From Escherichia coli (GTDB lineage Bacteria > Pseudomonadota > Gammaproteobacteria > Enterobacterales > Enterobacteriaceae): 64,000 bases of DNA. Location of the stretch: the NCBI RefSeq assembly GCF_050320075.1, contig NZ_CP190018.1; one strand, given 5' to 3'. Under the pieces are notes generated by a model. That model had not been told where the DNA came from. It saw only the letters and a program-made list of their open reading frames with translations, and made no database searches. The position numbers and the translations under genes are program-made. Position 1 is the stretch's first letter. The number at the start of each line of letters is the position of its first letter. This document shows, piece after piece, positions 22,398 to 37,287 of this stretch.

Positions 22398-24299
22398 ATG
22401 TCAACCGGATTACGTTTCACACTGGAAGTGGACGGCCTGCCGCCGGATGCTTTTGCGGTGGTTTCCTTTCATCTGAACCAGTCACTCTCTTCGCTCTTTT
22501 CCCTCGATCTCTCCCTGGTCAGCCAGCAGTTTCTCTCCCTTGAATTTGCGCAGGTGCTGGACAAAATGGCCTACCTGACGGTATGGCAGGGCGATGACGT
22601 ACAGCGCCGGGTGAAAGGCGTGGTGACCTGGTTTGAACTCGGGGAGAACGACAAAAACCAGATGCTGTACAGCATGAAGGTGCACCCGCCGCTGTGGCGT
22701 GCCGGTCTGCGCCAGAACTTCCGTATCTTCCAGAACGAGGACATCAAAAGCATCCTCGGCACGATGTTGCAGGAAAACGGGGTGACCGAATGGAGTCCGC
22801 TGTTCAGCGAGCCGCATCCTTCCCGTGAGTTTTGTGTCCAGTACGGTGAGACTGATTACGATTTCCTGTGCCGGATGGCGGCGGAGGAAGGCATCTTCTT
22901 TTATGAGGAGCATGCTTACAAAAGTACCGACCAGAGCCTGGTGCTGTGCGACACAGTCCGCCATCTGCCCGAATCTTTTGAAATCCCATGGAACCCGAAC
23001 ACCCGTACCGAGGTGAGCACCCTCTGCATCAGCCAGTTCCGCTACAGCGCACAAATCCGCCCTTCTTCCGTGGTGACCAAAGACTACACCTTTAAACGCC
23101 CCGGCTGGGCCGGACGTTTTGAACAGGAAGGCCAGCACCAGGACTACCAGCGCACGCAGTATGAAGTGTATGACTACCCCGGACGTTTCAAGGGTGCCCA
23201 CGGGCAGAACTTTGCCCGCTGGCAGATGGACGGCTGGCGAAACAATGCAGAAACCGCGCGGGGAATGAGTCGCTCGCCGGAGATATGGCCGGGACGACGA
23301 ATTGTGCTGACGGGGCATCCGCAGGCGAACCTGAACCGGGAATGGCAGGTGGTGGCAAGTGAACTGCACGGCGAACAGCCACAGGCGGTGCCAGGACGGC
23401 AGGGAGCGGGGACGGCGCTGGAGAACCATTTTGCGGTGATCCCGGCAGACAGAACATGGCGACCACAGCCGTTGCTGAAACCGCTGGTCGACGGCCCGCA
23501 GAGCGCTGTCGTGACAGGACCGGCAGGCGAGGAAATCTTCTGCGACGAACATGGTCGCGTGCGGGTGAAGTTCAACTGGGACCGCTATAACCCGTCAAAC
23601 CAGGACAGTTCGTGCTGGATCCGTGTGGCACAGGCGTGGGCAGGCACCGGTTTTGGCCACCTGGCGATACCGCGTGTGGGTCAGGAGGTGATTGTAGACT
23701 TCCTCAACGGCGATCCGGACCAGCCGATCATTATGGGGCGCACCTACCACCAGGAAAACCGCACCCCCGGCAGCCTGCCGGGAACAAAGACGCAGATGAC
23801 CATCCGCTCCAAAACGTACATGGGCAGCGGATTTAATGAGCTGAAGTTTGATGATGCGACAGGGAGAGAACAGGTCTACATCCACGCGCAGAAGAACATG
23901 GATACCGAAGTGCTCAACGACCGTACCACCACCGTAAAACACGATCACCACGAAACCGTAAAAAATGACCAGACGGTCACGATCCAGGAAGGTAACCGCC
24001 TTCTTACGGTGGAAAAAGGCCACAAGATCACCGGAGTACTGAAAGGGTCTTTATCTGAGGATGTCTTTCAGGACAGAGGCACGATTGCCGGTTCGGTGCA
24101 TGTTGACGCTGTAAACAATGGTGGCGAAGGCGACGGTATACAGGCTTATACGGCGATTAAGGAAATTTTGCTGGCCGTGGAGGAAAGCAAAATTGCGCTG
24201 ACGCCGGATGGCATTCAGCTACAGGTCGGGGAATCGACGGTAATCAGGCTGTCGAAGGATGGCATCACCATCGTGGGCGGTTCTGTTTTCATCAACTGA
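22398..24299 (+). CDS. vgrG: Type VI secretion spike protein VgrG (gp27/gp5-like)
   Basis: 633-aa ORF MSTGLRFTLEVDGLPPDAFAVVSFHLNQSLSSLFSLDLSLVSQ... typical VgrG N-terminus; GGAGG RBS 7 nt upstream. Confidence 0.9.
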   Translation: MSTGLRFTLEVDGLPPDAFAVVSFHLNQSLSSLFSLDLSLVSQQFLSLEFAQVLDKMAYLTVWQGDDVQRRVKGVVTWFELGENDKNQMLYSMKVHPPLWRAGLRQNFRIFQNEDIKSILGTMLQENGVTEWSPLFSEPHPSREFCVQYGETDYDFLCRMAAEEGIFFYEEHAYKSTDQSLVLCDTVRHLPESFEIPWNPNTRTEVSTLCISQFRYSAQIRPSSVVTKDYTFKRPGWAGRFEQEGQHQDYQRTQYEVYDYPGRFKGAHGQNFARWQMDGWRNNAETARGMSRSPEIWPGRRIVLTGHPQANLNREWQVVASELHGEQPQAVPGRQGAGTALENHFAVIPADRTWRPQPLLKPLVDGPQSAVVTGPAGEEIFCDEHGRVRVKFNWDRYNPSNQDSSCWIRVAQAWAGTGFGHLAIPRVGQEVIVDFLNGDPDQPIIMGRTYHQENRTPGSLPGTKTQMTIRSKTYMGSGFNELKFDDATGREQVYIHAQKNMDTEVLNDRTTTVKHDHHETVKNDQTVTIQEGNRLLTVEKGHKITGVLKGSLSEDVFQDRGTIAGSVHVDAVNNGGEGDGIQAYTAIKEILLAVEESKIALTPDGIQLQVGESTVIRLSKDGITIVGGSVFIN

Positions 24300-24326: not shown

Positions 24327-24788
24327 ATGCAGTTCACTTTTAATGAAGGCCACATTCAACTGCCGTCTCAATGGCAGGATCAGTCAATGCAGGTCCTGGT
24401 GTCCACAGATAACAGTGGCATCAACCTGGTCATTACCCGCGAAGCCGTTCCACAGGGAACCCTGACACCAGAGCTGTACCAGGAAACGCTGGCGCTGTAC
24501 CAGGGCAAACTTGATGGGTACACCGAACATGCCTGCCGGGAAATCACTCTGGCAGAGGCCCCGGCCTGGCTGCTGGATTATTCCTGGAACGGTCCGGAAG
24601 ATGAGGGGAATCAGGGGCGGATTAGCCAGATAGCCGTATTCCAGCGGCGTGGAGATACGCTGCTGACCTTCACTTTCAGCACCTCCTTATCCCTGAAGAA
24701 CAGTCAAAAGACGATGCTGCTGGAGGTGATAAAGAGCTTCACCCCGTTGCCACCGGAGAATGACATCCAAAAGGACCAGCCGCGCTGA
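24327..24788 (+). CDS. DUF1795-family (Eag-type) effector-associated chaperone
   Basis: 153-aa ORF immediately between vgrG and a prePAAR-Rhs gene; size and position match Eag chaperones; family assignment from memory of the sequence class, not from a search. Confidence 0.65.
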   Translation: MQFTFNEGHIQLPSQWQDQSMQVLVSTDNSGINLVITREAVPQGTLTPELYQETLALYQGKLDGYTEHACREITLAEAPAWLLDYSWNGPEDEGNQGRISQIAVFQRRGDTLLTFTFSTSLSLKNSQKTMLLEVIKSFTPLPPENDIQKDQPR

Positions 24789-24807: not shown

Positions 24808-27800
24808 ATGAGTGAAGGACCAGGCGGGCCACAGGGAGCGACCGCAGGCGGTACGCTGGCAATGCGAATGCTGTCACAGCAGGCGATGGTCGCCAGCCAG
24901 ATGAAACGGGCAGCCAACGACAAAGCCATTGCACAGATGCTGGCATCAAAAAAGTCCGGCCCCCCCGCCGCCAGGCTGGGCGATGAAATTCAGCACAAGA
25001 GTTTTTTGGGGGCGCTGGCAGGGGCCGTGCTGGGGGCGATAGTGACCATCGCAGAAGGTTGCCTGATTATGGCCGCCTGTGCCACCGGCCCTTATGCGCT
25101 GGTTCTGGTGCCTGCGCTGATGTATGCCAGCTATAAGGCGAGTGATTATGTGGAGGAGAAACAGAACCAGCTTGAATCATGGATAAACAGCTTTTGTGAC
25201 ACGGACGGCGCCATCAATACCGGTTCTGAAAATGTAAACATTAACGGAAAGCCCGCTGCCAGGGCCGCCGTCACCCTTCCCCCTCCTCCCCCACCTGGAG
25301 CAATACCTGAAATCCCACAGGGGGAACCCTCATGGGGTGATATTGCCACTGACCTGCTTGAATCGGCAGCGGAAAAAGCAGTACCACTGGCGAAGGCCTG
25401 GGGGAACGCTGTTATCACCCTGACGGACAGCAATGCCGGTTTTATGGATCGCGTCAGCGCCGGCGCATCGCTTCTGTTTCCCGCCGGTCCGGTATTAATG
25501 GAGTTTGCCACCATGGTGGGCGGGCGTGGCGAAATCAAAAAAGATGTGGATTTCCCGGAAGCCGGTGAGGACACGGCGCTCTGCGACAAGGAGAACAAAC
25601 CACCGAGGATAGCCCAGGGCAGCAGCAACGTCTTTATCAACAATCAGCCCGCCGCGCGCAAGGGCGACAAACTGGAGTGCAGCGCGGCAATCGTGGAAGG
25701 TTCGCCGGACGTCTTTATTGGCGGTGAACAGGTGACCTATCTGGATATCCAGCCAGAGTTCCCGCCGTGGCAGAGAATGATCCTGGGGGGAATAACGATA
25801 GCCAGCTATCTTCTGCCGCCAGCGGGACTGCTGGGAAAACTGAAGAATCTGGCGAGACTCGGCAAACTGGGGAACCTGCTGGGGAAAAGCGGGAAGCTGC
25901 TGGGGGCAAAGCTCGGCGCGTTGCTGGGAAAAACAGGTAAGTCGTTAAAAAGTATTGCCAATAAAGTCATCAGATGGGTAACAGATCCTGTCGATCCGGT
26001 AACCGGCGCGTACTGCGACGAACGTACCGACTTTACGCTGGGCCAGACCCTCCCCCTCTCCTTCACCCGTTTCCACAGTTCTGTACTGCCGCTGCATGGC
26101 CTGACCGGCGTGGGCTGGAGCGACTCCTGGAGCGAATACGCCTGGGTGCGTGAACAGGGAAACCGGGTGGATATCATCAGCCAGGGAGCCACGCTGAACT
26201 TCGCCTTCGACGGTGACAGTGATACGGCGGTTAACCCGTATCACGCCCAGTACATTCTGCGCCGCCGCGATGATTATCTGGAGCTGTTCGACAGGGATGC
26301 ACTGAGCAGCCGCTTCTTTTATGACGCCTTTCCGGGAATGCGTCTGCGCCACCCGGTGACTGACGATACCAGCGATGACCGCCTGGCACACAGCCCCAAT
26401 GACCGGATGTACATGCTGGGCGGGATGAGCGACACCGCCAGCAACCGCATCACGTTTGAGCGCGACAGCCAGTACCGGATCACAGGTGTCAGTCACACCG
26501 ACGGGATCCGGCTTAAACTGACGTACCACGCCAGCGGCTACCTGAAAGCCATTCACCGCACGGATAACGGCATACAGACGCTGGCGACCTACGAACAGGA
26601 TGCGCGGGGGCGGCTGACAGAAGCGGATGCGCGGCTGGACTACCACCTGTTTTATGAGTACGACGCTGCGGACCGGATCATCCGCTGGTCCGATAACGAC
26701 CAGACGTGGAGCCGTTTCACCTACGATGAACAGGGCCGGTGCGTGAATGTCACCGGGGCGGAGGGCTATTACAACGCCACGCTGGACTATGGTGACGGCT
26801 GCACCACCGTGACGGACGGCAAGGGCATTCACCGTTATTACTATGATCCTGACGGCAATATTCTGCGGGAAGCAGCGCCGGACGGCAGCACCACCATGTA
26901 TGAATGGGATGAATTCCATCACCTGCTGGCCCGTCACTCCCCTGCCGGGCGGGTGGAGAAATTTGAATACAACGCCGCACACGGTCAGTTAAGCCGTTAC
27001 ACGGCGGCAGACGGCGCGGAGTGGCAGTACCGCTATGATGAGCGCGGCCTGCTCAGCAACATCACCGACCCTGCCGGGCAGACGTGGACACAGCAGTGTG
27101 ATGAACGCGGCCTGCCGGTAAGTCTGGTGTCGCCACAGGGCGAAGAGACCCGGCTGGCATACACCGCTCAGGGGCTGCTGTCGGGAATATTCCGCCAGGA
27201 TGAACGGCGTCTGGGCATAGAGTACGACCACCACAACCGGCCGGAAACACTCACCGACGTGATGGGCCGCGAACACCACACCGAATACAGTGGTCACGAC
27301 CTGCCGGTGAAGATGCGCGGCCCCGGCGGTCAGTCAGTGAGGTTGCAGTGGCAGCAGCACCATAAACTGAGCGGCCTTGAGCGCACTGGCACCGGCGCGG
27401 AAGGATTCCGCTACGACCGTCACGGCAACCTGCTGGCGTACACGGACGGTAACGGTGTTGTCTGGACAATGGAGTACGGCCCGTTTGATTTGCCGGTGGC
27501 GCGAACGGACGGTGAAGGCCACCGCTGGCAGTACCGCTACGATAAAGACACGCTGCAACTGACAGAAGTCATCAACCCGCAGGGTGAGTCATATCTTTAT
27601 GTTCTGGATAACTGCGGCCGGGTGACGGAAGAGCGTGACTGGGGCGGCGTGGTCTGGCGTTACCGTTATGATGCCGATGGCCTGTGTACCGCCAGGGTTA
27701 ACGGTCTGGAGGAAACCATCCTCTACAGCCGGGACGCCGCAGGCCGCCTGGCAGAAGTCATCACGCCGGAAGGCAAAACGCAGTATGCGTATGACAAATC

Positions 27801-29640
27801 CGGCAGGCTGACGGGTATCTTCAGCCCGGACGGCACATCACAGCGCACCGGCTATGACGAACGCGGGCGGGTGAATGTCACCACTCAGGGCCGACGGGCC
27901 ATTGAATACCACTACCCCGATGAACACACCGTCATCCGCTGTATCCTGCCACCGGAAGATGAACGCGACAGACACCCCGGTGAATCCCTGCTGAAAACCA
28001 CGTACCGCTACAACGCAGCCGGAGAACTGGCAGAGGTCATCCTGCCGGAGGATGAGACGCTGACGTTCAGCCGTGATGAGGCAGGACGTGAAGTGCTCCG
28101 GCACAGTAACCGGGGTTTTGCCTGTGAGCAGGGCTGGAATGCAGCCGGTCAGCTTACCAGCCAGCGCGCCGGACTTTTCCCGGCGGAAGCCACATGGGGC
28201 GGACTGCTCCCCTCACTGGTGCGGGAGTACCGTTACGACAGCGCGGGCAATGTGTCGGCTGTCACCAGCCGGGAAGATTACGGACGGGAAACTCGCCGGG
28301 AGTACCGGCTGGACCGGAACGGCCAGGTCACGGCGGTGACAGCCTCAGGCACCGGGCTGGGCTATGGCGAAGGCGATGAGTCCTATGGCTATGACAGCTG
28401 CGGCTACCTGAAGGCGCAGTCTGCGGGCTGGCACCGGATAAGTGAAGAGACTGACCAGTATGCCGGAGGCCACCGGCTGAAACAGGCCGGAAACACGCAG
28501 TATGACTATGACGCCGCAGGCCGGATGGTCAGCCGCATAAAACACCGTGACGGCTACCGCCCGGAAACAGAGCGGTTCCGGTGGGACAGCCGTGACCAGC
28601 TGACCGGGTATTGCAGCGCACAGGGTGAACAGTGGGAATACCGCCACGACGCCAGCGGCAGACGGACGGAAAAACGCTGCGACCGGAAGAAAATCCGCAT
28701 CACGTACCTGTGGGACGGCGACAGTATTGCGGAAATCCGGGAATACCGCGATGATAAACTGTACAGCGTACGGCACCTGGTGTTTAACGGCTTTGAGCTG
28801 ATAAGCCAGCAGTGCAGCCGGGTACGGCAGCCGCATCCGTCCGTGGCCCCGCAGTGGGTGACGCGGACGAATCATGCGGTGAGCGACCTGACGGGCCGTC
28901 CGCTGATGCTCTTTAACAGTGAAGGTAAAACCGTCTGGCGACCGGGGCAGACCAGCCTGTGGGGGCTGGCACTCAGCCTGCCCGCAGACACCGGCTACCC
29001 GGACCCGCGCGGGGAACTGGACGCGGAAGCCGACCCCGGCCTGCTGTATGCAGGACAGTGGCAGGATGCGGAATCCGGGCTGTGCTATAACCGGTTCCGG
29101 TATTACGAGCCGGAAACAGGGATGTACCTGGTGAGTGATCCGCTGGGGTTGCTGGGGGGTGAGCAGACTTACCGGTATGTGCCGAATCCGTGTGGGTATG
29201 TTGATCCGCTGGGATTAGCATTTTGCCCCAGAATGCAGAAGACATTGCAAAAATTAACTGACAAGGCTGTTGCTGATATTATCGCTAACCCCAGACTCGC
29301 TGAAGATCTGATGTCGGCGGGGAGCTATGCACATTTAAAAAATGGAACTAATTTATATGCAGCCAGTTTTGGTAAGGCTGTTGAACGTAGGGTTGCACAG
29401 TTAGTTAGTGACAATTCCCGATTAAGCAAACTTGTTGAACATACTGGTCAGGCCAAGGGGGCTAATGGACAGTTTATATCGAGCCCTGACTTCACCACTA
29501 AAGGTAAAGGCGTGTTCGACGTTACAACAAATAAAGCACTCCAAGCGCATATAGACAGATATACTAAAGCTGGTGTGTATACTCCCTATAATGATATTGG
29601 TTACTTGGTATATGATGTCGTATATGGATTATCTTTCTAA
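24808..29640 (+). CDS. rhs: prePAAR/PAAR-domain Rhs polymorphic toxin (T6SS effector) with C-terminal toxin domain
   Basis: 1610-aa ORF; N-terminal AARLGDEIQH (prePAAR AARxxDxxxH), hydrophobic TM segments, PAAR-like segments (NINGKPAAR, FINNQPAARKGD), long YD-repeat region, Rhs core ending PCGYVDPLGL (PxxxxDPxGL) at 29188-29217, followed by ~141-aa low-GC C-terminal domain. Confidence 0.9.
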   Translation: MSEGPGGPQGATAGGTLAMRMLSQQAMVASQMKRAANDKAIAQMLASKKSGPPAARLGDEIQHKSFLGALAGAVLGAIVTIAEGCLIMAACATGPYALVLVPALMYASYKASDYVEEKQNQLESWINSFCDTDGAINTGSENVNINGKPAARAAVTLPPPPPPGAIPEIPQGEPSWGDIATDLLESAAEKAVPLAKAWGNAVITLTDSNAGFMDRVSAGASLLFPAGPVLMEFATMVGGRGEIKKDVDFPEAGEDTALCDKENKPPRIAQGSSNVFINNQPAARKGDKLECSAAIVEGSPDVFIGGEQVTYLDIQPEFPPWQRMILGGITIASYLLPPAGLLGKLKNLARLGKLGNLLGKSGKLLGAKLGALLGKTGKSLKSIANKVIRWVTDPVDPVTGAYCDERTDFTLGQTLPLSFTRFHSSVLPLHGLTGVGWSDSWSEYAWVREQGNRVDIISQGATLNFAFDGDSDTAVNPYHAQYILRRRDDYLELFDRDALSSRFFYDAFPGMRLRHPVTDDTSDDRLAHSPNDRMYMLGGMSDTASNRITFERDSQYRITGVSHTDGIRLKLTYHASGYLKAIHRTDNGIQTLATYEQDARGRLTEADARLDYHLFYEYDAADRIIRWSDNDQTWSRFTYDEQGRCVNVTGAEGYYNATLDYGDGCTTVTDGKGIHRYYYDPDGNILREAAPDGSTTMYEWDEFHHLLARHSPAGRVEKFEYNAAHGQLSRYTAADGAEWQYRYDERGLLSNITDPAGQTWTQQCDERGLPVSLVSPQGEETRLAYTAQGLLSGIFRQDERRLGIEYDHHNRPETLTDVMGREHHTEYSGHDLPVKMRGPGGQSVRLQWQQHHKLSGLERTGTGAEGFRYDRHGNLLAYTDGNGVVWTMEYGPFDLPVARTDGEGHRWQYRYDKDTLQLTEVINPQGESYLYVLDNCGRVTEERDWGGVVWRYRYDADGLCTARVNGLEETILYSRDAAGRLAEVITPEGKTQYAYDKSGRLTGIFSPDGTSQRTGYDERGRVNVTTQGRRAIEYHYPDEHTVIRCILPPEDERDRHPGESLLKTTYRYNAAGELAEVILPEDETLTFSRDEAGREVLRHSNRGFACEQGWNAAGQLTSQRAGLFPAEATWGGLLPSLVREYRYDSAGNVSAVTSREDYGRETRREYRLDRNGQVTAVTASGTGLGYGEGDESYGYDSCGYLKAQSAGWHRISEETDQYAGGHRLKQAGNTQYDYDAAGRMVSRIKHRDGYRPETERFRWDSRDQLTGYCSAQGEQWEYRHDASGRRTEKRCDRKKIRITYLWDGDSIAEIREYRDDKLYSVRHLVFNGFELISQQCSRVRQPHPSVAPQWVTRTNHAVSDLTGRPLMLFNSEGKTVWRPGQTSLWGLALSLPADTGYPDPRGELDAEADPGLLYAGQWQDAESGLCYNRFRYYEPETGMYLVSDPLGLLGGEQTYRYVPNPCGYVDPLGLAFCPRMQKTLQKLTDKAVADIIANPRLAEDLMSAGSYAHLKNGTNLYAASFGKAVERRVAQLVSDNSRLSKLVEHTGQAKGANGQFISSPDFTTKGKGVFDVTTNKALQAHIDRYTKAGVYTPYNDIGYLVYDVVYGLSF
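27186..29217 (+). repeat. Direct repeat copy 1 (3' part of Rhs core, ~2.03 kb)
   Basis: Near-identical to 30384..32412 (visible by eye: ATTCCGCCAGGATGAACGGCGTCTGGGCATAGAGTACGACCACCAC... through ...GATCCGCTGGGATT). Confidence 0.9.
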
Positions 29641-29662
29641 AGCAAACTAATGGTAACTAAAT

Positions 29663-30373
29663 ATGACAAAAGTTCTTGAGAATGAAGAGTTCAATTCTAT
29701 ACATATAGACGAAGGTGGGGTTTTTAATAGTTTACGCTTTGAAAAATGTCTTTTTCAAAGCTGTAGCATACTTAGCAGAAAACTAAATGATAATAGTGAT
29801 TTACCTCCTCGCTTTGAAAACATTCTCATTAAAGATTGCACTGCTCTTAATTGTGTAAGTGGCCCAGCTTTTTTAAAAGATGTAACTGTTGAGAATTTTA
29901 GGACCGGTGATATTTTTCTTATTTATTCCACTATGTTTCATCATGTAACATTAAAAGGAAAGCTTGGGGCAATAAAAATAAATAAAAAAGATTATGTGCG
30001 TGACTATGATAGCCATCAAAGACATATTGAGATGATGAGAACGAGATTTTATTCTCAGATAGATTGGGCGATGGATATATCACAGGCGAAGTTTTTAAGT
30101 TTCTCCTGCAAAGGTATCCCAGCAAAATTAATTAGACGAGATAGTGAGACTCAATTTGTTGTAACGAGGAAACGTTTCAACTCTATGGATGTACTAAATG
30201 CAGAATTTAAAGGACAATACCCGTTTGTTTATTTACTGCTGGAGCTCTTTTTAGAATCAGATGAAGATGACCAGGTATTAGTTACACCATTAGGCAAAGC
30301 AAAAAAATATTATCAGCCAATTCTCGAAGGATTTAGAGAGTTAAGACGAGCAGGAATACTCGAACCTAACTAA
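29663..30373 (+). CDS. Putative cognate immunity protein of the Rhs C-terminal toxin
   Basis: 236-aa ORF starting 22 nt after the rhs stop, AT-rich codon usage unlike the Rhs core; position is the canonical immunity slot. No recognisable family. Confidence 0.6.
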   Translation: MTKVLENEEFNSIHIDEGGVFNSLRFEKCLFQSCSILSRKLNDNSDLPPRFENILIKDCTALNCVSGPAFLKDVTVENFRTGDIFLIYSTMFHHVTLKGKLGAIKINKKDYVRDYDSHQRHIEMMRTRFYSQIDWAMDISQAKFLSFSCKGIPAKLIRRDSETQFVVTRKRFNSMDVLNAEFKGQYPFVYLLLELFLESDEDDQVLVTPLGKAKKYYQPILEGFRELRRAGILEPN

Positions 30374-30383
30374 ATAAGGGTTA

Positions 30384-32412
30384 TATTCCGCCAGGATGAA
30401 CGGCGTCTGGGCATAGAGTACGACCACCACAACCGGCCGGAAACACTCACCGACGTGATGGGCCGCGAACACCACACCGAATACAGTGGTCACGACCTGC
30501 CGGTGAAGATGCGCGGCCCCGGCGGTCAGTCAGTGCGCTTACAGTGGCAGCAGCACCATAAACTGAGTGGCCTTGAGCGCACTGGCACCGGCGCGGAAGG
30601 ATTCCGCTACGACCGCCACGGCAACCTGCTGGCCTGGACGGACGGTAACGGTGTTGTCTGGACAATGGAATACGGCCCGTTTGATTTGCCGGTGGCGCGA
30701 ACGGACGGTGAAGGCCACCGCTGGCAGTACCGCTACGATAAAGACACGCTGCAACTGACAGAAGTCATTAACCCGCAGGGTGAGTCATATCTTTATGTTC
30801 TGGATAACTGCGGCCGGGTGACGGAAGAGCATGACTGGGGCGGCGTGGTCTGGCGTTACCGCTATGACGCCGATGGCCTGTGTACCGCCAGGGTCAACGG
30901 CCTGGAGGAAACCATCCTCTACAGCCGGGACGCCGCAGGCCGCCTGGCAGAAGTCATCACGCCGGAAGGCAAAACGCAGTATGCCTATGACAAATCCGGC
31001 AGGCTGACGGGTATCTTCAGCCCGGACGGCACATCACAGCGCACCGGCTATGACGAACGCGGGCGGGTGAATGTCACCACTCAGGGCCGACGGGCCATTG
31101 AATACCACTACCCCGACGAACACACCGTCATCCGCTGTATCCTGCCACCGGAAGATGAACGCGACAGACACCCCGGTGAATCCCTGCTGAAAACCACGTA
31201 CCGCTACAACGCCGCCGGAGAACTGACGGAGGTCATTCTGCCGGGGGATGAGACGCTGACGTTCAGCCGTGATGAGGCAGGACGTGAAGTGCTCCGGCAC
31301 AGTAACCGGGGTTTTGCCTGTGAACAGGGCTGGAATGCAGCCGGTCAGCCTGTCAGTCAGCGCGCCGGACTTTTCCCGGCAGAAGCCACATGGGGCGGGC
31401 TGCTCCCCTCACGGGTACGGGAGTACCGTTACGACAGCGCGGGTAATGTGTCAGGCGTCACCAGCCGGGAAGATTACGGACGGGAAACACGGCGGGAATA
31501 CCGGCTGGACCGGAACGGCCAGGTCACGGCGGTGACAGCCTCAGGCACCGGGCTGGGCTATGGCGAAGGCGATGAGTCCTATGGCTATGACAGCTGCGGC
31601 TACCTGAAGGCGCAGTCTGCGGGCTGGCACCGGATAAGTGAAGAGACTGACCAGTATGCCGGAGGCCACCGGCTGAAACAGGCCGGAAACACGCAGTATG
31701 ACTATGACGCCGCAGGCCGGATGGTCAGCCGCATAAAACACCGTGACGGCTACCGCCCGGAAACAGAGCGGTTCCGGTGGGACAGCCGTGACCAGCTGAC
31801 CGGGTATTGCAGCGCACAGGGTGAACAGTGGGAATACCGCCACGACGCCAGCGGCAGACGGACGGAAAAACGCTGCGACCGGAAGAAAATCCGCATCACG
31901 TACCTGTGGGACGGCGAAGTATTGCGGAAATCCGGGAATACCGCGATGATAAACTGTACAGCGTACGGCACCTGGTGTTTAACGGCTTTGAGCTGATAAG
32001 CCAGCAGTTCAGCCGGGTACGGCAGGCGCATCCGTCGGTGGCCCCGCAGTGGGTGACACGGACGAATCATGCGGTGAGCGACCTGACGGGCCGTCCGCTG
32101 ATGCTCTTTAACAGTGAAGGTAAAACCGTCTGGCGACCGGGACAGACCAGCCTGTGGGGGCTGGCACTCAGCCTGCCCGCAGACACCGGCTACCCGGACC
32201 CGCGCGGGGAACTGGACCCGGAAGCCGACCCCGGCCTGCTGTATGCAGGACAGTGGCAGGATGCAGAATCCGGGCTGTGCTATAACCGGTTCCGGTATTA
32301 CGAGCCGGAAACCGGGATGTACCTGGTGAGTGATCCGCTGGGGTTGCTGGGGGGTGAGCAGACTTACCGGTATGTGCCAAATCCGTGTGGGTGGGTTGAT
32401 CCGCTGGGATTG
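30384..32412 (+). repeat. Direct repeat copy 2 (orphan Rhs core fragment)
   Basis: See copy 1 at 27186..29217. Confidence 0.9.
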
Positions 32413-32865
32413 GCTGCAAGTTCTAAAATCAGCAGTTTGATGGACTATATTGGCGATGGTCGTCGTGTTAGTGGGCATACGGGTTTCCTGGATGGGGTTC
32501 GTTTATCACGTAGTCAAATAAACAATATTGCTAAAGAAATGGAGAAGCTAGGAATTAAAGTAATAAGGAAAGCAGATAAATATTTGCCACCAAATGCTAG
32601 GGCAGCTTTTGATTATGGCCTTCGCAATATTTATCTTAGGAAAAATGCTACCTTATATGAGGTGTATCATGAAGTGATTCATGCTAAGCAATTTGCGAAA
32701 ATTGGACGAGAAGCATACGAAGCACTAGGACGTTTATCTAGGGAGGAACACGTTCTAAATGAAATATTAAAAAGTAAAAATTTATTCAATGAGGCGGAAA
32801 TAGCTCATGCCATAAAATATGTTGAGGGATTGAGAGAAAAATTCATGATGGGACTAATAAATTGA
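30384..32865 (+). pseudogene. Orphan Rhs core-fragment + alternative C-terminal toxin domain, frameshifted
   Basis: Repeats the 3' 2 kb of the rhs core; 1-bp deletion near 31917 (GGCGAAGTATTGCGG vs GGCGACAGTATTGCGG in the main copy) splits it into ORFs 30455..31996 and 31828..32865; ends DPLGL (32398-32412) + divergent ~150-aa CT containing HEVIH. Confidence 0.8.
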
Positions 32866-33113
32866 TAAAACATAACAAAATAACTATCGAAATGGCTCTT
32901 GACTTGGCTCGGCGTGAGTTAGAGTTAAGGGAAATTCCTTATATTAAAAATAGTCTACATGCCAATTACAGCTATAAATCTATTAGTATTGGTTCTAAGC
33001 AAGGTTGGTTAATTTCAGCGAAATTAAAAGTCCCTGAAACTTTTGAGCCTGATATGATATTTATTGAGATATCTGACCCAGAAGGTTTTATTAATATTCC
33101 TGATGTATTATAA
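32862..33113 (+). CDS. Putative immunity protein for the orphan Rhs-CT
   Basis: 83-aa low-GC ORF overlapping the orphan CT stop; start codon uncertain (TTG in ORF track). Confidence 0.45.
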   Translation: MIKHNKITIEMALDLARRELELREIPYIKNSLHANYSYKSISIGSKQGWLISAKLKVPETFEPDMIFIEISDPEGFINIPDVL

Positions 33114-33309
33114 ACTACGTTAGAGGTTTTGTTATAAGGTAATCGGTTTCTTTACAGACCGCTGGCGTACATCGCACAGAGGCTGCTAACAGGGATATTC
33201 CTGCCTGGATGAACGCAAGGCAAGATCATGGAAATAGTGATATACATCACTATTTCCATCCTGATTTTAGCTATCGCATTAATAAAACAGCGGATGTTAG
33301 CCAATATCG

Positions 33310-33500
33310 AAACCAGTAACCCGTATCACGCCCAGTACATCCTGCGCCGCCGCGATGATTACCTGGTGCTGTTCGACCGTGATGCCCTGAGCTGCCGCTT
33401 CTTTTATGACGCCTTTCCGGGAATGCGTCTGCGCCACCAGGTGACCGGCGATACCGACGATGACCGCCTGGCACACAGCCCCGCAGACCGGATGTATACA
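33310..33500 (+). pseudogene. Vestigial Rhs core fragment
   Basis: NPYHAQYILRRRDDYLVLFDRDALSCRFFYDAFPGMRLRH... matches main rhs at ~26228..26420; embedded in ORF 33228..33539 with unrelated flanks. Confidence 0.7.
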
Positions 33501-33579
33501 GGGAAAGATCATCAGAAGTACACTTTTTGTACTAAATAATTCACATTTTATGTTTAAAAATTGAGATATTCCTCATTAC

Positions 33580-34800
33580 CTGAAGCTGTTTTTTATTGCT
33601 TATACATGATCAAATACTCCTTACATAATTAAGGAGAACAAAATGGAACTTAAAAAATTGATGGAACATATTTCTATTATTCCCGATTACAGACAAGCCT
33701 GGAAAGTGGAACATAAATTATCGGATATTCTATTGTTGACTATTTGTGCCGTTATTTCTGGTGCGGAAGATTGGGAAGATATAGAGGATTTTGGGGAAAC
33801 ACATCTCGATTTTTTGAAGCAATATGGTGATTTTGAAAATGGTATTCCTGTTCACGATACCATTGCCAGAGTTGTATCCTGTATCAGTCCTGCAAAATTT
33901 CACGAGTGCTTTATTAACTGGATGCGTGACTGCCATTCTTCAGATGATAAAGACGTCATTGCAATTGATGGAAAAACGCTCCGGCACTCTTATGACAAGA
34001 GTCGCCGCAGGGGAGCGATTCATGTCATTAGTGCGTTCTCAACAATGCACAGTCTGGTCATCGGACAGATCAGGACGGATGAGAAATCCAATGAGATTAC
34101 AGCTATCCCAGAACTTCTTAACATGCTGGATATTAAAGGAAAAATCATCACAACTGATGCGATGGGTTGCCAGAAAGATATTGCAGAGAAGATACAAAAA
34201 CAGGGAGGTGATTATTTATTCGCGGTAAAAGGAAACCAGGGGCGGCTAAATAAAGCCTTCGAGGAAAAATTTCCGCTGAAAGAATTAAATAATCCAGAGC
34301 ATGACAGTTACGCAATGAGTGAAAAGAGTCACGGCAGAGAAGAAATCCGTCTTCACATTGTTTGCGATGTCCCTGATGAACTTATTGATTTCACGTTTGA
34401 ATGGAAAGGTCTGAAGAAATTATGCGTGGCAGTCTCCTTTCGGTCAATAATAGCAGAACAAAAGAAAGAGCCAGAAATGACGGTCAGATATTATATTAGT
34501 TCTGCTGATTTAACCGCAGAGAAGTTCGCCACAGCAATCCGAAACCACTGGCACGTGGAGAATAAGCTGCACTGGCGTCTGGACGTGGTAATGAATGAAG
34601 ACGACTGCAAAATAAGAAGAGGAAATGCAGCAGAATTATTTTCAGGGATACGGCACATCGCTATTAATATTTTGACGAATGATAAGGTATTCAAGGCAGG
34701 GTTAAGACGTAAGATGCGAAAAGCAGCCATGGACAGAAACTATCTGGCGTCAGTCCTTGCGGGGAGCGGGCTTTCGTAATCTTGCCCTGCCTGCTCACCT
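33580..34800 (+). mobile_element. H-rpt / ISAs1-family insertion sequence (approximate bounds)
   Basis: Transposase CDS 33643..34779; terminal inverted repeats not delimited by me. Confidence 0.5.
33643..34779 (+). CDS. H-repeat-associated protein / ISAs1-family transposase (H-rpt)
   Basis: 378-aa [63 protein letters not shown]... recognised as the H-rpt (YhhI/YdcC-like) transposase that accompanies Rhs elements. Confidence 0.85.
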
Positions 34801-35049: not shown

Positions 35050-37287
35050 GTGGACTGGCTTCTTGATGTTTTTGCTACCTGGCTCTACGGCTTAAAAGTA
35101 ATCGCGATAACGTTAGCGGTCATCATGTTCATCAGCGGGCTGGACGATTTTTTTATTGATGTCGTCTACTGGGTACGCCGCATTAAACGCAAGTTGAGTG
35201 TTTATCGCCGCTACCCGCGAATGAGTTACCGCGAACTGTATAAACCAGATGAAAAACCGTTAGCGATTATGGTTCCGGCGTGGAATGAAACGGGCGTCAT
35301 CGGCAATATGGCCGAGCTGGCGGCGACCACGCTCGACTATGAAAACTATCATATCTTTGTTGGCACCTACCCCAACGACCCCGATACTCAGCGTGATGTT
35401 GACGAAGTGTGCGCTCGCTTCCCGAATGTGCATAAGGTAGTCTGCGCGCGACCTGGCCCCACCAGCAAAGCCGACTGCCTGAACAACGTGCTGGACGCCA
35501 TCACCCAGTTTGAGCGTAGCGCCAATTTCGCTTTTGCTGGTTTTATTCTGCATGACGCCGAAGATGTGATTTCACCGATGGAATTGCGTCTGTTCAACTA
35601 TCTGGTCGAGCGTAAAGATCTGATTCAGATCCCGGTGTATCCGTTCGAACGCGAATGGACGCACTTCACCAGCATGACTTACATTGATGAGTTTTCAGAA
35701 CTGCATGGCAAAGATGTTCCGGTGCGTGAAGCCCTCGCCGGACAAGTGCCCAGCGCAGGCGTCGGTACCTGTTTCAGCCGCCGCGCCGTGACCGCACTGT
35801 TAGCTGACGGTGACGGTATTGCTTTCGACGTGCAGAGTCTTACTGAAGATTACGACATTGGCTTCCGCCTGAAAGAAAAAGGTATGACGGAAATTTTTGT
35901 CCGTTTTCCGGTGGTGGACGAAGCCAAAGAACGCGAGCAGCGTAAATTTTTACAGCACGCGCGGACGTCAAACATGATCTGCGTGCGCGAATATTTCCCC
36001 GATACCTTTTCGACTGCGGTTCGACAAAAATCTCGCTGGATCATCGGCATTGTTTTCCAGGGCTTTAAAACCCACAAATGGACCTCCAGTCTGACGCTGA
36101 ACTACTTTCTCTGGCGCGACCGCAAAGGGGCAATCAGTAACTTTGTCAGCTTCCTCGCGATGCTGGTGATGATCCAGCTTTTGCTGTTGCTGGCGTATGA
36201 AAGTTTGTGGCCCGATGCCTGGCATTTCCTTTCTATTTTCAGCGGCAGCGCATGGTTAATGACTCTGCTGTAGCTAAACTTTGGCTTGATGATTAACCGC
36301 ATCGTGCAGCGGGTGATTTTCGTTACTGGCTACTACGGCCTGACGCAGGGGCTGCTATCTGTCCTGCGTCTTTTCTGGGGCAACCTGATTAACTTCATGG
36401 CCAACTGGCGCGCGTTAAAACAGGTACTTCAACACGGCGATCCACGTCGTGTCGCGTGGGATAAAACAACGCATGACTTCCCCAGCGTGACTGGCGATAC
36501 CCGCTCGTTGCGTCCGTTAGGTCAAATCCTGCTGGAAAATCAGGTCATCACTGAAGAACAACTCGATACAGCACTGCGTAATCGCGTCGAAGGTCTACGC
36601 CTGGGCGGTTCAATGCTGATGCAGGGGCTGATTAGCGCCGAACAGCTGGCACAGGCGCTGGCAGAGCAAAACGGCGTGGCGTGGGAGTCGATCGACGCCT
36701 GGCAGATCCCTTCATCACTGATTGCCGAAATGCCGGCTTCCGTGGCGCTGCATTATGCAGTACTGCCGCTGCGTCTGGAAAATGATGAGTTAATTGTCGG
36801 CAGTGAAGATGGTATTGACCCGGTTTCGCTGGCGGCCCTGACGCGTAAAGTCGGACGCAAAGTGCGTTACGTCATTGTTCTGCGGGGACAAATTGTCACG
36901 GGGTTACGCCACTGGTATGCGCGCCGACGCGGTCACGATCCGCGGGCAATGTTGTACAATGCGGTTCAGCATCAGTGGCTCACGGAACAGCAGGCCGGTG
37001 AAATCTGGCGGCAATATGTGCCGCATCAGTTCCTGTTCGCCGAAATACTGACCACGCTCGGTCATATTAATCGTTCAGCAATTAACGTGTTGTTATTGCG
37101 CCATGAACGCAGTTCTCTGCCGCTCGGCAAGTTTTTGGTCACCGAAGGCGTTATCAGCCAGGAAACGTTGGATCGCGTCCTGACAATTCAACGCGAATTA
37201 CAAGTTTCGATGCAATCACTATTACTCAAAGCAGGTTTAAACACAGAACAGGTTGCGCAACTGGAGTCCGAAAATGAAGGAGAATAA
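35050..37287 (+). pseudogene. nfrB: Phage N4 adsorption protein B (family-2 glycosyltransferase), interrupted by in-frame amber codon
   Basis: ORFs 35050..36273 (407 aa) and 36286..37287 (333 aa) are in the same frame, separated only by TAG at 36271-36273; 407+1+337 = 745 codons, the full NfrB length as I recall it. Confidence 0.8.

Follow-up and report, generated by a model that had tools for sequence, protein, structure and literature searches.

The window, i.e. the whole 64-kb stretch of E. coli DNA analysed, contains an island which in this species sits between cusS and nfrB; all the features described here lie on the + strand. The island includes a vgrG gene (22398..24299; NCBIfam TIGR03361, E 5.7e-188, annotated as VgrG in RefSeq) coding for a T6SS spike protein with the length of 633 aa, a gene coding for a 153-aa DcrB/DUF1795-family protein (24327..24788; Pfam DcrB PF08786, E 1.7e-27, full model), which is probably an Eag-type effector chaperone judging by its family and position, and a full-length main rhs gene (24808..29640) with YD repeat, Rhs_assc_core, PAAR, prePAAR_I, PAAR_motif and DUF6531 matches. 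The main Rhs is a 1610-aa protein consisting of prePAAR (aa 54-100), a split PAAR (aa 132-153 and 266-310), DUF6531, a YD-repeat core matched by TIGR01643 (8 stretches) and TIGR03696 Rhs_assc_core, the DPLGL motif and the C-terminal toxin tip CT1. The core-end motif PxxxxDPxGL is present in this gene as VPNPCGYVDPLGL. The vgrG gene, the DUF1795 gene and the prePAAR/PAAR-Rhs gene form a single cluster, as expected for T6SS class I prePAAR effectors, and no T6SS core genes are annotated in the 64-kb window.

Downstream there is a partial core of the same clade and in the same orientation (30383..32414), the orphan, described in RefSeq as “missing N-terminus” and “frameshifted”. It begins 10 nt past the stop codon of the putative immunity gene that follows CT1 and possesses neither the N-terminal delivery region nor a native start codon. 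Each of the two cores is followed, after its DPxGL motif, by a tip non-homologous to the other and by a small ORF; GC content is about 60-65% in the core and falls to 31-45% in the tips and their immunity genes. A third short rhs core fragment (33318..33497), 92% identical to positions 26232-26411, is found in all the locus variants examined, and the island ends with a gene coding for an ISAs1-family (ISEc1, H-repeat) transposase (33643..34779; NCBIfam NF033564, E 4.1e-125, and RefSeq).

CT1 (29220..29640), which follows DPLGL in the main Rhs, is 140 aa long and belongs to an uncharacterised polymorphic-toxin family, possibly with a restriction-endonuclease fold. Directly after it lies a low-GC ORF coding for 236 aa (29663..30373), the putative immunity-1 gene, which from its position only is presumed to neutralise CT1. 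The orphan tip CT2 (32415..32865) is a Tox-MPTase4 zincin-like metallopeptidase (Pfam PF15640, E 9.3e-34, model positions 1-132 of 132) carrying HEVIH, which fits the zinc-binding motif HExxH. It is followed by the annotated 69-aa CT2 immunity gene (32904..33113; WP_001299578.1), the ORF being open from a TTG at 32862; this small ORF has been reported in the literature as the cognate immunity gene cti1. The intact immunity-2 gene should still guard the strain against attackers armed with Rhs-CT2. Neither CT1 nor immunity-1 has a Pfam or NCBIfam match, the 83-aa immunity-2 ORF has no NCBIfam match, and a PDB sequence search with CT1, CT2 and immunity-1 returned nothing meaningful.

In pairwise alignment the 3' part of the main core (copy 1, 27187..29219, 2033 nt) and the orphan core (copy 2, 30383..32414, 2032 nt) form a direct repeat with an identity of about 97.6% (97.5-97.7%), which is far beyond chance. 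The initial sequence-only reading, which described 30384-32412 as a near-identical copy of 27186-29217 with scattered substitutions, is confirmed in substance; both of its starts were 1 nt off, while its ends correctly fall on the final base of the DPLGL codons (GAT CCG CTG GGA TTA/TTG, 29203-29217 in copy 1 and 32398-32412 in copy 2), past which the homology extends for 2 nt more. The gapped alignment shows 47 substitutions between the copies, which become 50 if 28257-28260 is counted as three substitutions in the ungapped register. What appeared as a compensated indel at 28257-28260 in the first alignment is better read as those three substitutions. The codon pairs are synonymous at 32 of the 47 sites and non-synonymous at the other 15, and the longest perfect run is 419 nt. 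The start-to-start spacing of the copies is 3196, changing further along to 3195. There is a net 1-nt deletion in copy 2, which that reading had missed.

The deletion lies between 31917 and 31918, where copy 1 reads GGCGACAGTATT and copy 2 reads GGCGA-AGTATT, and it breaks the orphan up into one ORF at 30455-31996 and another, in a different frame, at 31828-32865, leaving the CT2 reading frame intact 3' of the frameshift. Among 5426 complete genomes searched, it occurs in only one of the 2259 matching genomes, YZLc1-3, which is identical to the window yet was absent from the best 40 tandem matches listed and was found with a 70-mer query; in the other tandem genomes examined, including Ec-U3 and L002, the orphan is in frame. 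As the orphan is frameshifted, only crossovers within the last 497 nt of the repeat (about 23% of the usable identity) would give a functional swap, an intact 1620-aa Rhs-CT2, while those within the 1535 nt upstream of 28722 are computed to yield a truncated 1330-aa product; owing to the 31917/31918 deletion, it is not the case here that any crossover would give an intact fusion. The frameshift before the spare toxin could be either a genuine mutation or an error of one base in the assembly. The remark in the sequence-only reading that the repeat makes the region an assembly hazard for short reads is reasonable, the one hint in this direction being a single-base difference within the repeat between two public assemblies that are identical otherwise; a 2-kb repeat of this kind calls for long reads or careful polishing.

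The orphan also carries copy-1 alleles at 10 contiguous sites (31734..31903), revealed by allele comparison and regarded as a candidate gene-conversion tract, and at one more site, 32247. The patch is common to Ec-U3, YZLc1-3 and the single-copy locus L009 and is absent from L002, L004 and L008. A polishing artefact of one assembly was considered as its source and ruled out by its presence in the independent Ec-U3 and YZLc1-3 as well as in L009.

With at least 99% identity required over 4.6 kb, the tandem arrangement was detected in 82 complete E. coli genomes; with a threshold of at least 80% coverage the number is 149. The count is given as this bracket because neither of two other queries was helpful: the core alone makes up 83% of a 4233-nt query, which was thus uninformative for counting the arrangement, and matches to a synthetic query of CT1, immunity-1, CT2 and immunity-2 were not joined over the 2-kb gap. 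The rhs paralogues account for a median of 4 matching places per E. coli genome. CT2 with immunity-2 is present in 1163 of the 5426 genomes versus 159 for CT1 with immunity-1, and a contiguous long-core Rhs-CT2 was seen in about 6 of 40 evenly spaced rows of 2522 records, i.e. in about 380 genomes as a rough estimate. The single-copy Rhs-CT2 of L008 has copy-2 alleles throughout, L010 and L011 mostly so, and in O157:H7 CT2 is likewise the orphan tip, there following another main tip. In H15 the orphan ends in a tip other than CT2 and is frameshifted with an internal stop. A near-identical immunity-1/core junction is located 5' of two orphan tips, CT2 here and another one in H15, with a cassette divergence of 0.6% versus 3-5% in the flanking cores. 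The CT1 cassette was not found in phages, and its only “plasmid” matches, of 1.2 Mb and 4.8 Mb, are evidently chromosomes.

Recombination between the copies had been predicted from the sequence to delete the CT1/immunity pair and fuse the full-length Rhs to the orphan tip, and comparison with related strains revealed just such an alternative arrangement in CFSAN061763 (L004) and 13 other genomes. The cusS-nfrB locus of CFSAN061763 harbors a single full-length gene coding for a 1620-aa Rhs with the CT2 tip, followed by immunity-2, with CT1 and immunity-1 gone. Its alleles are of the copy-1 type through 27921 and of the copy-2 type from 28017, placing the switch within 27922-28016 (95 nt); 17 sites are of the copy-1 type and the other 30 of the 47 are of the copy-2 type (41 of 58 with the L002 copies as reference). 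A synthetic join of copy 1 and copy 2 of the ST38-type tandem locus L002 reproduces the 9187-bp L004 island with 0 mismatches and 0 gaps, and over 7293 nt of flank L004 has 3 mismatches to the window. This chimera is shared by 14 genomes including CFSAN061763, and in the four sampled the flank proteins are identical. The loci L004, L015, L016 and L017 are single-copy without CT1 or immunity-1, and none of the 14 chimera accessions is among 60 evenly sampled from the 159 immunity-1 carriers. In L004-type strains immunity-1 seems to have been lost completely. The exact match between the synthetic join and the natural island indicates that the predicted crossover has occurred in nature, the main/orphan fusion being seen in related genomes and not in this strain.

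Taken together, the feature is very probably a main-plus-orphan T6SS Rhs toxin locus with recombining core copies and a displaced CT2 tip. The full-length prePAAR/PAAR-Rhs would be armed with CT1, while the promoterless, start-less 2-kb core copy would store the former tip CT2 together with its immunity gene. The two core copies, whose homology tract ends at the core/tip boundary, could serve as substrates for homologous recombination, and a crossover would remove one 3196-bp unit (core segment, CT1 and immunity-1) and join the delivery-competent Rhs to CT2. The tandem state most likely arose by insertion of a CT1/immunity-1 unit ahead of an ancestral Rhs-CT2, since the 1163 versus 159 genomes, the all-copy-2 L008 and the CT2 orphan in O157:H7 point to CT2 as the ancestral tip. 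For L004 the presumed direction of change is from the tandem to the collapsed state.

The opposite polarity, with the collapsed L004-type locus being ancestral and the tandem arising by insertion of the CT1 unit, so that the chimera would not be a deletion product, is quite improbable. The reaction is formally reversible, L004 and the reciprocal circle giving the tandem locus, and CT2 is indeed far commoner than CT1, but the circle would need the exact reciprocal haplotype and, out of 2033 nt, would have to integrate within those very 95 nt, and an all-copy-2 ancestor accounts better for the copy-2 alleles of L008 and for the related haplotypes of diverged lineages. Whichever the direction, the L004 alleles demonstrate crossing-over between the two repeats. 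It is hardly conceivable that the duplication itself is an assembly artefact, the outcome by which the sequence-only reading would have fallen: although short reads do not span repeats of 2 kb and there are several rhs paralogues per genome, the same arrangement recurs in 82-149 complete genomes that many laboratories assembled independently, and the copies, each joined to unique sequence, have 47-58 fixed differences.

Two further explanations concern the role of the orphan rather than its origin. It is rather unlikely to be just a relic left to decay after an earlier tip displacement, one that has no toxin future and retains at most its immunity gene. The missing start codon and delivery domain, the frameshifts here and in H15 and the degraded locus L005, in which only the orphan is kept, would agree with such decay, and premature TAG codons in some natural single-copy Rhs-CT2 genes (L008, L009) mean that decay competes with reuse. 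On the other hand, 1153 genomes have CT2 and immunity-2 at 99% identity or more, every tandem genome examined other than YZLc1-3 keeps the orphan in frame, and in the natural recombinant CT2 is back on a full-length Rhs. A possible though doubtful suggestion, compatible with the swap, is that the orphan acts as a TA-like module driven by an internal promoter in the 3' core independently of T6SS, with recombination being incidental. In Salmonella, main and orphan Rhs tips are expressed from promoters inside the gene and function as type II TA modules, and the frame after the deletion is open over 31828-32865 with ATG codons at 32101 and 32317; the promoter and terminator scan, however, was at background level (16 consensus promoter sites versus 12.2 +/- 3.5 expected), and the link to the O157:H7 gene rhsG is by synteny only.

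Beyond the main-plus-orphan reading, one may tentatively propose that the 3196-bp unit (core segment, CT1, immunity-1 and junction) is a mobile cassette that RecA-mediated recombination can excise and insert again into any clade IV rhs core, by way of the circle put forward by Jackson et al. in 2009; separately, CT1 would represent a new nuclease-like family and the 236-aa product a new immunity protein. We hold this to be doubtful. If it were true, the L004-type locus would be an emptied donor site, and the shared junction and the 0.6% versus 3-5% divergence would be footprints of re-insertion. Two other accounts found no support in H15: concerted evolution within loci, as the H15 copies are 96.8% identical and no closer than between-lineage pairs, and simple circle insertion from a window-like donor, as there is no long low-divergence core tract beside the cassette.

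Both the phenomenon and the locus have already been published, and toxin displacement by such recombination, which the sequence-only reading had recognized as a known mechanism, is documented for Rhs (Koskiniemi 2014; Jackson 2009); the locus leaves the current understanding of Rhs biology unchanged. It is the E. coli clade IV rhs “position 4” and the EHEC S-loop 44 rhsF/rhsG island. Jackson et al. 2009 (BMC Genomics 10:584, PMC2935791) described clade IV rhs at position 4, nfrB-cusS, and its C-terminal tip displacement: at this same site core fragments of the same clade, with non-homologous tips, lie behind a full-length rhs, and a presumably ancestral shared tip is displaced by differing ones from strain to strain, comparable to CT2 lying behind CT1 in the window and behind a different tip in O157:H7. 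That work covered seven strains and proposed circle excision and reinsertion, with the circle seen neither there nor in the present analysis, whereas here the exact chromosomal product of excision or deletion has been identified and the same immunity-1/core junction lies 5' of two different orphan tips. In Salmonella Typhimurium LT2 (Koskiniemi et al. 2014, PLoS Genet 10:e1004255, PMC3967940) a full-length rhs likewise has an adjacent orphan with homology up to the core/tip boundary, and recombination there joins the orphan tip onto the delivery part, over a tract of 522 bp at 95% identity compared to 2033 nt at about 97.6% here. The Salmonella recombination takes place after duplication, with the main immunity kept, while the E. 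coli product is a single-copy deletion without immunity-1 at the locus, so the L004-type loci do not follow the duplication-first pattern. With a simple deletion the CT1 immunity gene is lost as well, a cost that led Koskiniemi et al. to invoke prior duplication.

The EHEC O157:H7 S-loop 44 rhsF-rhsFI-rhsG-rhsGI array (EHEC rhsF/rhsG, NAR 2025, PMC7618764, a study of internal promoters and RNA binding and not of recombination) shares the island and the gene order, with rhsG-rhsGI corresponding by synteny to the orphan CT2/immunity-2. It differs in having RhsF/RhsFI as the main tip instead of CT1 and its 236-aa partner, and its orphan keeps only about 1 kb of the core.

Rhs tips set which neighbours a strain kills and which attacks it survives, so main/orphan arrays supply E. 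coli lineages such as ST38-type and O157:H7 with a reserve of competitive phenotypes. The tandem state, presumably immune to both toxins and armed with CT1, and the collapsed state, armed with the metallopeptidase and apparently without CT1 immunity, make up a near-isogenic pair which is a ready test of the fitness trade-off of switching.

A further closely comparable system in the literature is the Rhs-MPTase4 protein “Rhs-CT1” (Ma et al. 2017, Environ Microbiol 19:345, as presented in PMC6730261 and bioRxiv 10.1101/2024.03.05.583533), which is a PAAR-Rhs with a C-terminal Tox-MPTase4 and a small immunity protein and is reported as a T6SS-dependent antibacterial effector. Compared with the protein as portrayed there, the MPTase4 tip in the window occupies a silent orphan position behind a frameshift. 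The names clash, as the “Rhs-CT1” of Ma et al. 2017, as cited in those sources, is CT2 in the present work.

The island is bounded by cusS and nfrB and includes vgrG (22398-24299; TIGR03361, E 5.7e-188), a DcrB/DUF1795-family gene (24327-24788; PF08786), which is the family of Eag effector chaperones, and a gene coding for a 1610-aa Rhs protein (24808-29640). This protein combines a class I prePAAR motif, a split PAAR, DUF6531 and YD repeats with the Rhs-associated core and ends in the tip CT1 (29220-29640). These genes are followed by a 236-aa ORF (29663-30373), the putative immunity partner of CT1, and by an orphan core which begins 10 nt past the stop codon of this ORF, lacks a start codon of its own and carries the tip CT2 (32415-32865), which matches Pfam Tox-MPTase4 along the entire model (E 9.3e-34) and contains an HEVIH motif. 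The putative partner of CT2 is a 69-aa ORF (32904-33113), beyond which lie a third core fragment of 180 nt (33318-33497; 92% identity with 26232-26411) and an ISAs1/ISEc1 transposase gene (33643-34779). The GC content is 0.60-0.65 in the core and drops to 0.31-0.45 across the tips and the small ORFs, and with this architecture the island is a classic Rhs composite.

The direct repeat of the core 3' end described in the sequence-only reading is present: by local alignment, copy 1 in the main rhs (27187-29219, 2033 nt) pairs with copy 2 in the orphan (30383-32414, 2032 nt), and both starts reported earlier were one base off. Each copy stops just past the DPLGL codons (29203-29217 and 32398-32412), so the ends reported earlier were exact. 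The gapped alignment contains 47 substitutions, or 50 if the difference at 28257-28260 is counted, without gaps, as three substitutions; the codon pairs at the 47 differing sites are synonymous in 32 cases and non-synonymous in 15. The earlier reading overlooked that copy 2 has a net loss of one base.

The swap proposed earlier, in which a crossover between the copies removes the CT1 unit and joins the main Rhs to CT2, has an exact natural product in strain CFSAN061763 (L004). At the copy-distinguishing sites (47 for the window, 58 for the ST38-type tandem record L002), its full-length Rhs-CT2 gene is of copy-1 type at 17/17 sites up to 27921 and of copy-2 type at all sites from 28017 on, with one switch only. 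A synthetic chimera, consisting of L002 from vgrG to the window-equivalent position 27960 joined to the equivalent position in L002 copy 2 and continued through ISEc1, is identical to the L004 island over all of its 9187 bp, with neither mismatches nor gaps. In its flanks, L004 hardly differs from the window (no mismatch in 2185 nt upstream, 3 in 7293 nt downstream) and is farther from L002 (48 mismatches in 6821 nt). The chimeric segment is found at 100% identity in 14 genomes, and the four inspected, whose sources on several continents were cheese, cow, human and swan, share identical Rhs protein and flanking protein alleles, which fits a single event inherited clonally.

This match proves crossing-over between these two repeats, whichever its direction. 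The polarity is inferred, since the same two states would also result if the reciprocal circle integrated within the 95-nt switch interval; deletion is more parsimonious than such an integration because some single-copy genes carry copy-2 alleles throughout (L008) and diverged lineages are mostly of copy-2 type (L010, L011). The swap interpretation is supported, with the frameshift caused by the 1-nt deletion as a strain-specific caveat.

The comparison with related strains suggested in the earlier reading revealed several tip arrangements. Among 5426 complete E. coli genomes, CT2 with its small ORF occurs in 1163 (1153 with at least 99% identity) and CT1 with its ORF in 159, while the tandem region 29000-33600 is found with at least 99% identity in 82 and at least 80% coverage in 149. 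O157:H7 has another main tip followed by a shorter CT2 orphan, in H15 the main tip is CT1 and the orphan is a different, degraded one, and WCHEC025943 retains the CT2 orphan alone. Many strains possess a single full-length Rhs-CT2 (L004, L007-L010), and in L011 it is truncated at the 5' end and joined to a truncated vgrG. The single-copy genes of L008 and L009 have a common premature TAG at codon 878 (window-equivalent 27439-27441; copy-2 TGG to TAG), so some strains seemingly armed with the metallopeptidase hold an inactivated gene.

The deletion in copy 2 lies between 31917 and 31918 (GGCGACAGTATT in copy 1 versus GGCGA-AGTATT in copy 2), in a context with no homopolymer, and splits the orphan into ORFs 30455-31996 and 31828-32865 in different frames. 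The window is identical to NZ_CM192149.1 (Ec-U3, human urine, Burkina Faso) across all 64 kb save the deleted base, and to NZ_CP123240.1 (YZLc1-3, chicken, China), deletion included, over the 22 kb compared; RefSeq labels the orphan 'missing N-terminus' in Ec-U3 and 'frameshifted' in YZLc1-3. A 70-mer across the deletion is exact in one of 2259 matching genomes, all the remaining ones having the extra base, which leaves two explanations for the frameshift: a mutation of very recent origin, or an assembly error of one base within the repeat. Efficient RecA-dependent exchange needs roughly 25 nt of identity at minimum. Perfectly identical stretches of 25 nt or more add up to 1362 nt 5' of the frameshift and 407 nt 3' of it, so about 23% of the usable identity is productive. 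An L004-type crossover in the window sequence is predicted to give a 1330-aa truncated product, and a crossover within 28723-29219 an intact 1620-aa Rhs-CT2; the longest stretch without any difference, 28303-28721 (419 nt), is on the unproductive side.

Other footprints of recombination were detected. At 10 contiguous sites (31734-31903, corresponding to 28538-28707) and at one more, 32247, the window orphan has the allele of copy 1. This patch is absent from L002, L004 and L008; its presence in both Ec-U3 and YZLc1-3, two independent assemblies, rules out a one-off artefact, and the single-copy gene of L009 has the 10 contiguous sites. The patch probably arose by gene conversion. The junction between the CT1 partner ORF and the orphan core is the same in H15 except for one upstream base, although the H15 orphan tip differs. 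Between the window and H15, the segment 29148-30397 (CT1, its partner and the junction) diverges by about 0.6% and the cores on either side by 3-5%, which fits a cassette moved between backgrounds and hints that the CT1 unit is transferable; this comparison gave no support, however, for the plain insertion of a circle derived from a window-like donor.

The CT1 tip belongs to an unnamed polymorphic-toxin family of 79 representative clusters, in which E56, D91, T103 and T104 are invariant and D101 nearly so. Its confident model weakly resembles restriction-endonuclease-fold nucleases, and its 236-aa partner matched no known family.

The displacement mechanism, which the earlier reading held to be already described, is indeed found in Jackson et al. 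2009 and Koskiniemi et al. 2014. The site is rhs position 4 (nfrB-cusS, clade IV) of Jackson et al., their tip-displacement example, where a shared tip, presumed to be ancestral, was displaced independently by two others, and circle-mediated excision with reinsertion was proposed (PMC2935791). Koskiniemi et al. demonstrated by experiment that the main and orphan genes of Salmonella recombine across a tract of 522 bp with 95% identity, following a duplication that preserved immunity to the main toxin (PMC3967940), whereas the product found naturally in E. coli is a simple deletion leaving one copy. In EHEC Sakai the island corresponds to rhsF-rhsFI-rhsG-rhsGI, with the tip and immunity gene transcribed from internal promoters in the 3' core and RhsGint being toxic (PMC7618764); by synteny with the O157:H7 locus, rhsG is the CT2 orphan. 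Salmonella rhs orphans act as TA-like modules, and two secondary sources report an MPTase4 Rhs with a small immunity protein as a T6SS-dependent effector pair (PMC6730261; bioRxiv 10.1101/2024.03.05.583533). System type, mechanism and locus are all previously described; the additions here are the exact natural recombinant, the frameshift with its consequence and the hints of a CT1 cassette.

The third core fragment derives from a more 5' part of the core, adjoins ISEc1 in all the locus variants examined and looks like an old rearrangement scar. With 26232-26411 it forms a second, weaker direct repeat, recombination at which would remove about 7 kb. Just 5' of this fragment and ISEc1 there is a perfect 14-bp inverted repeat, ATGGAAATAGTGAT ... 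ATCACTATTTCCAT (33228-33259), which could represent either an IS-related end or a hairpin resembling a terminator. The neighboring nfrB (35050-37287) has a premature TAG at codon 408 (36271-36273), which is TGG in the ST38-type record, and RefSeq flags an 'internal stop' in Ec-U3 and YZLc1-3 alike. Since phage N4 adsorption requires NfrB, the lineage with this stop may be N4-resistant.
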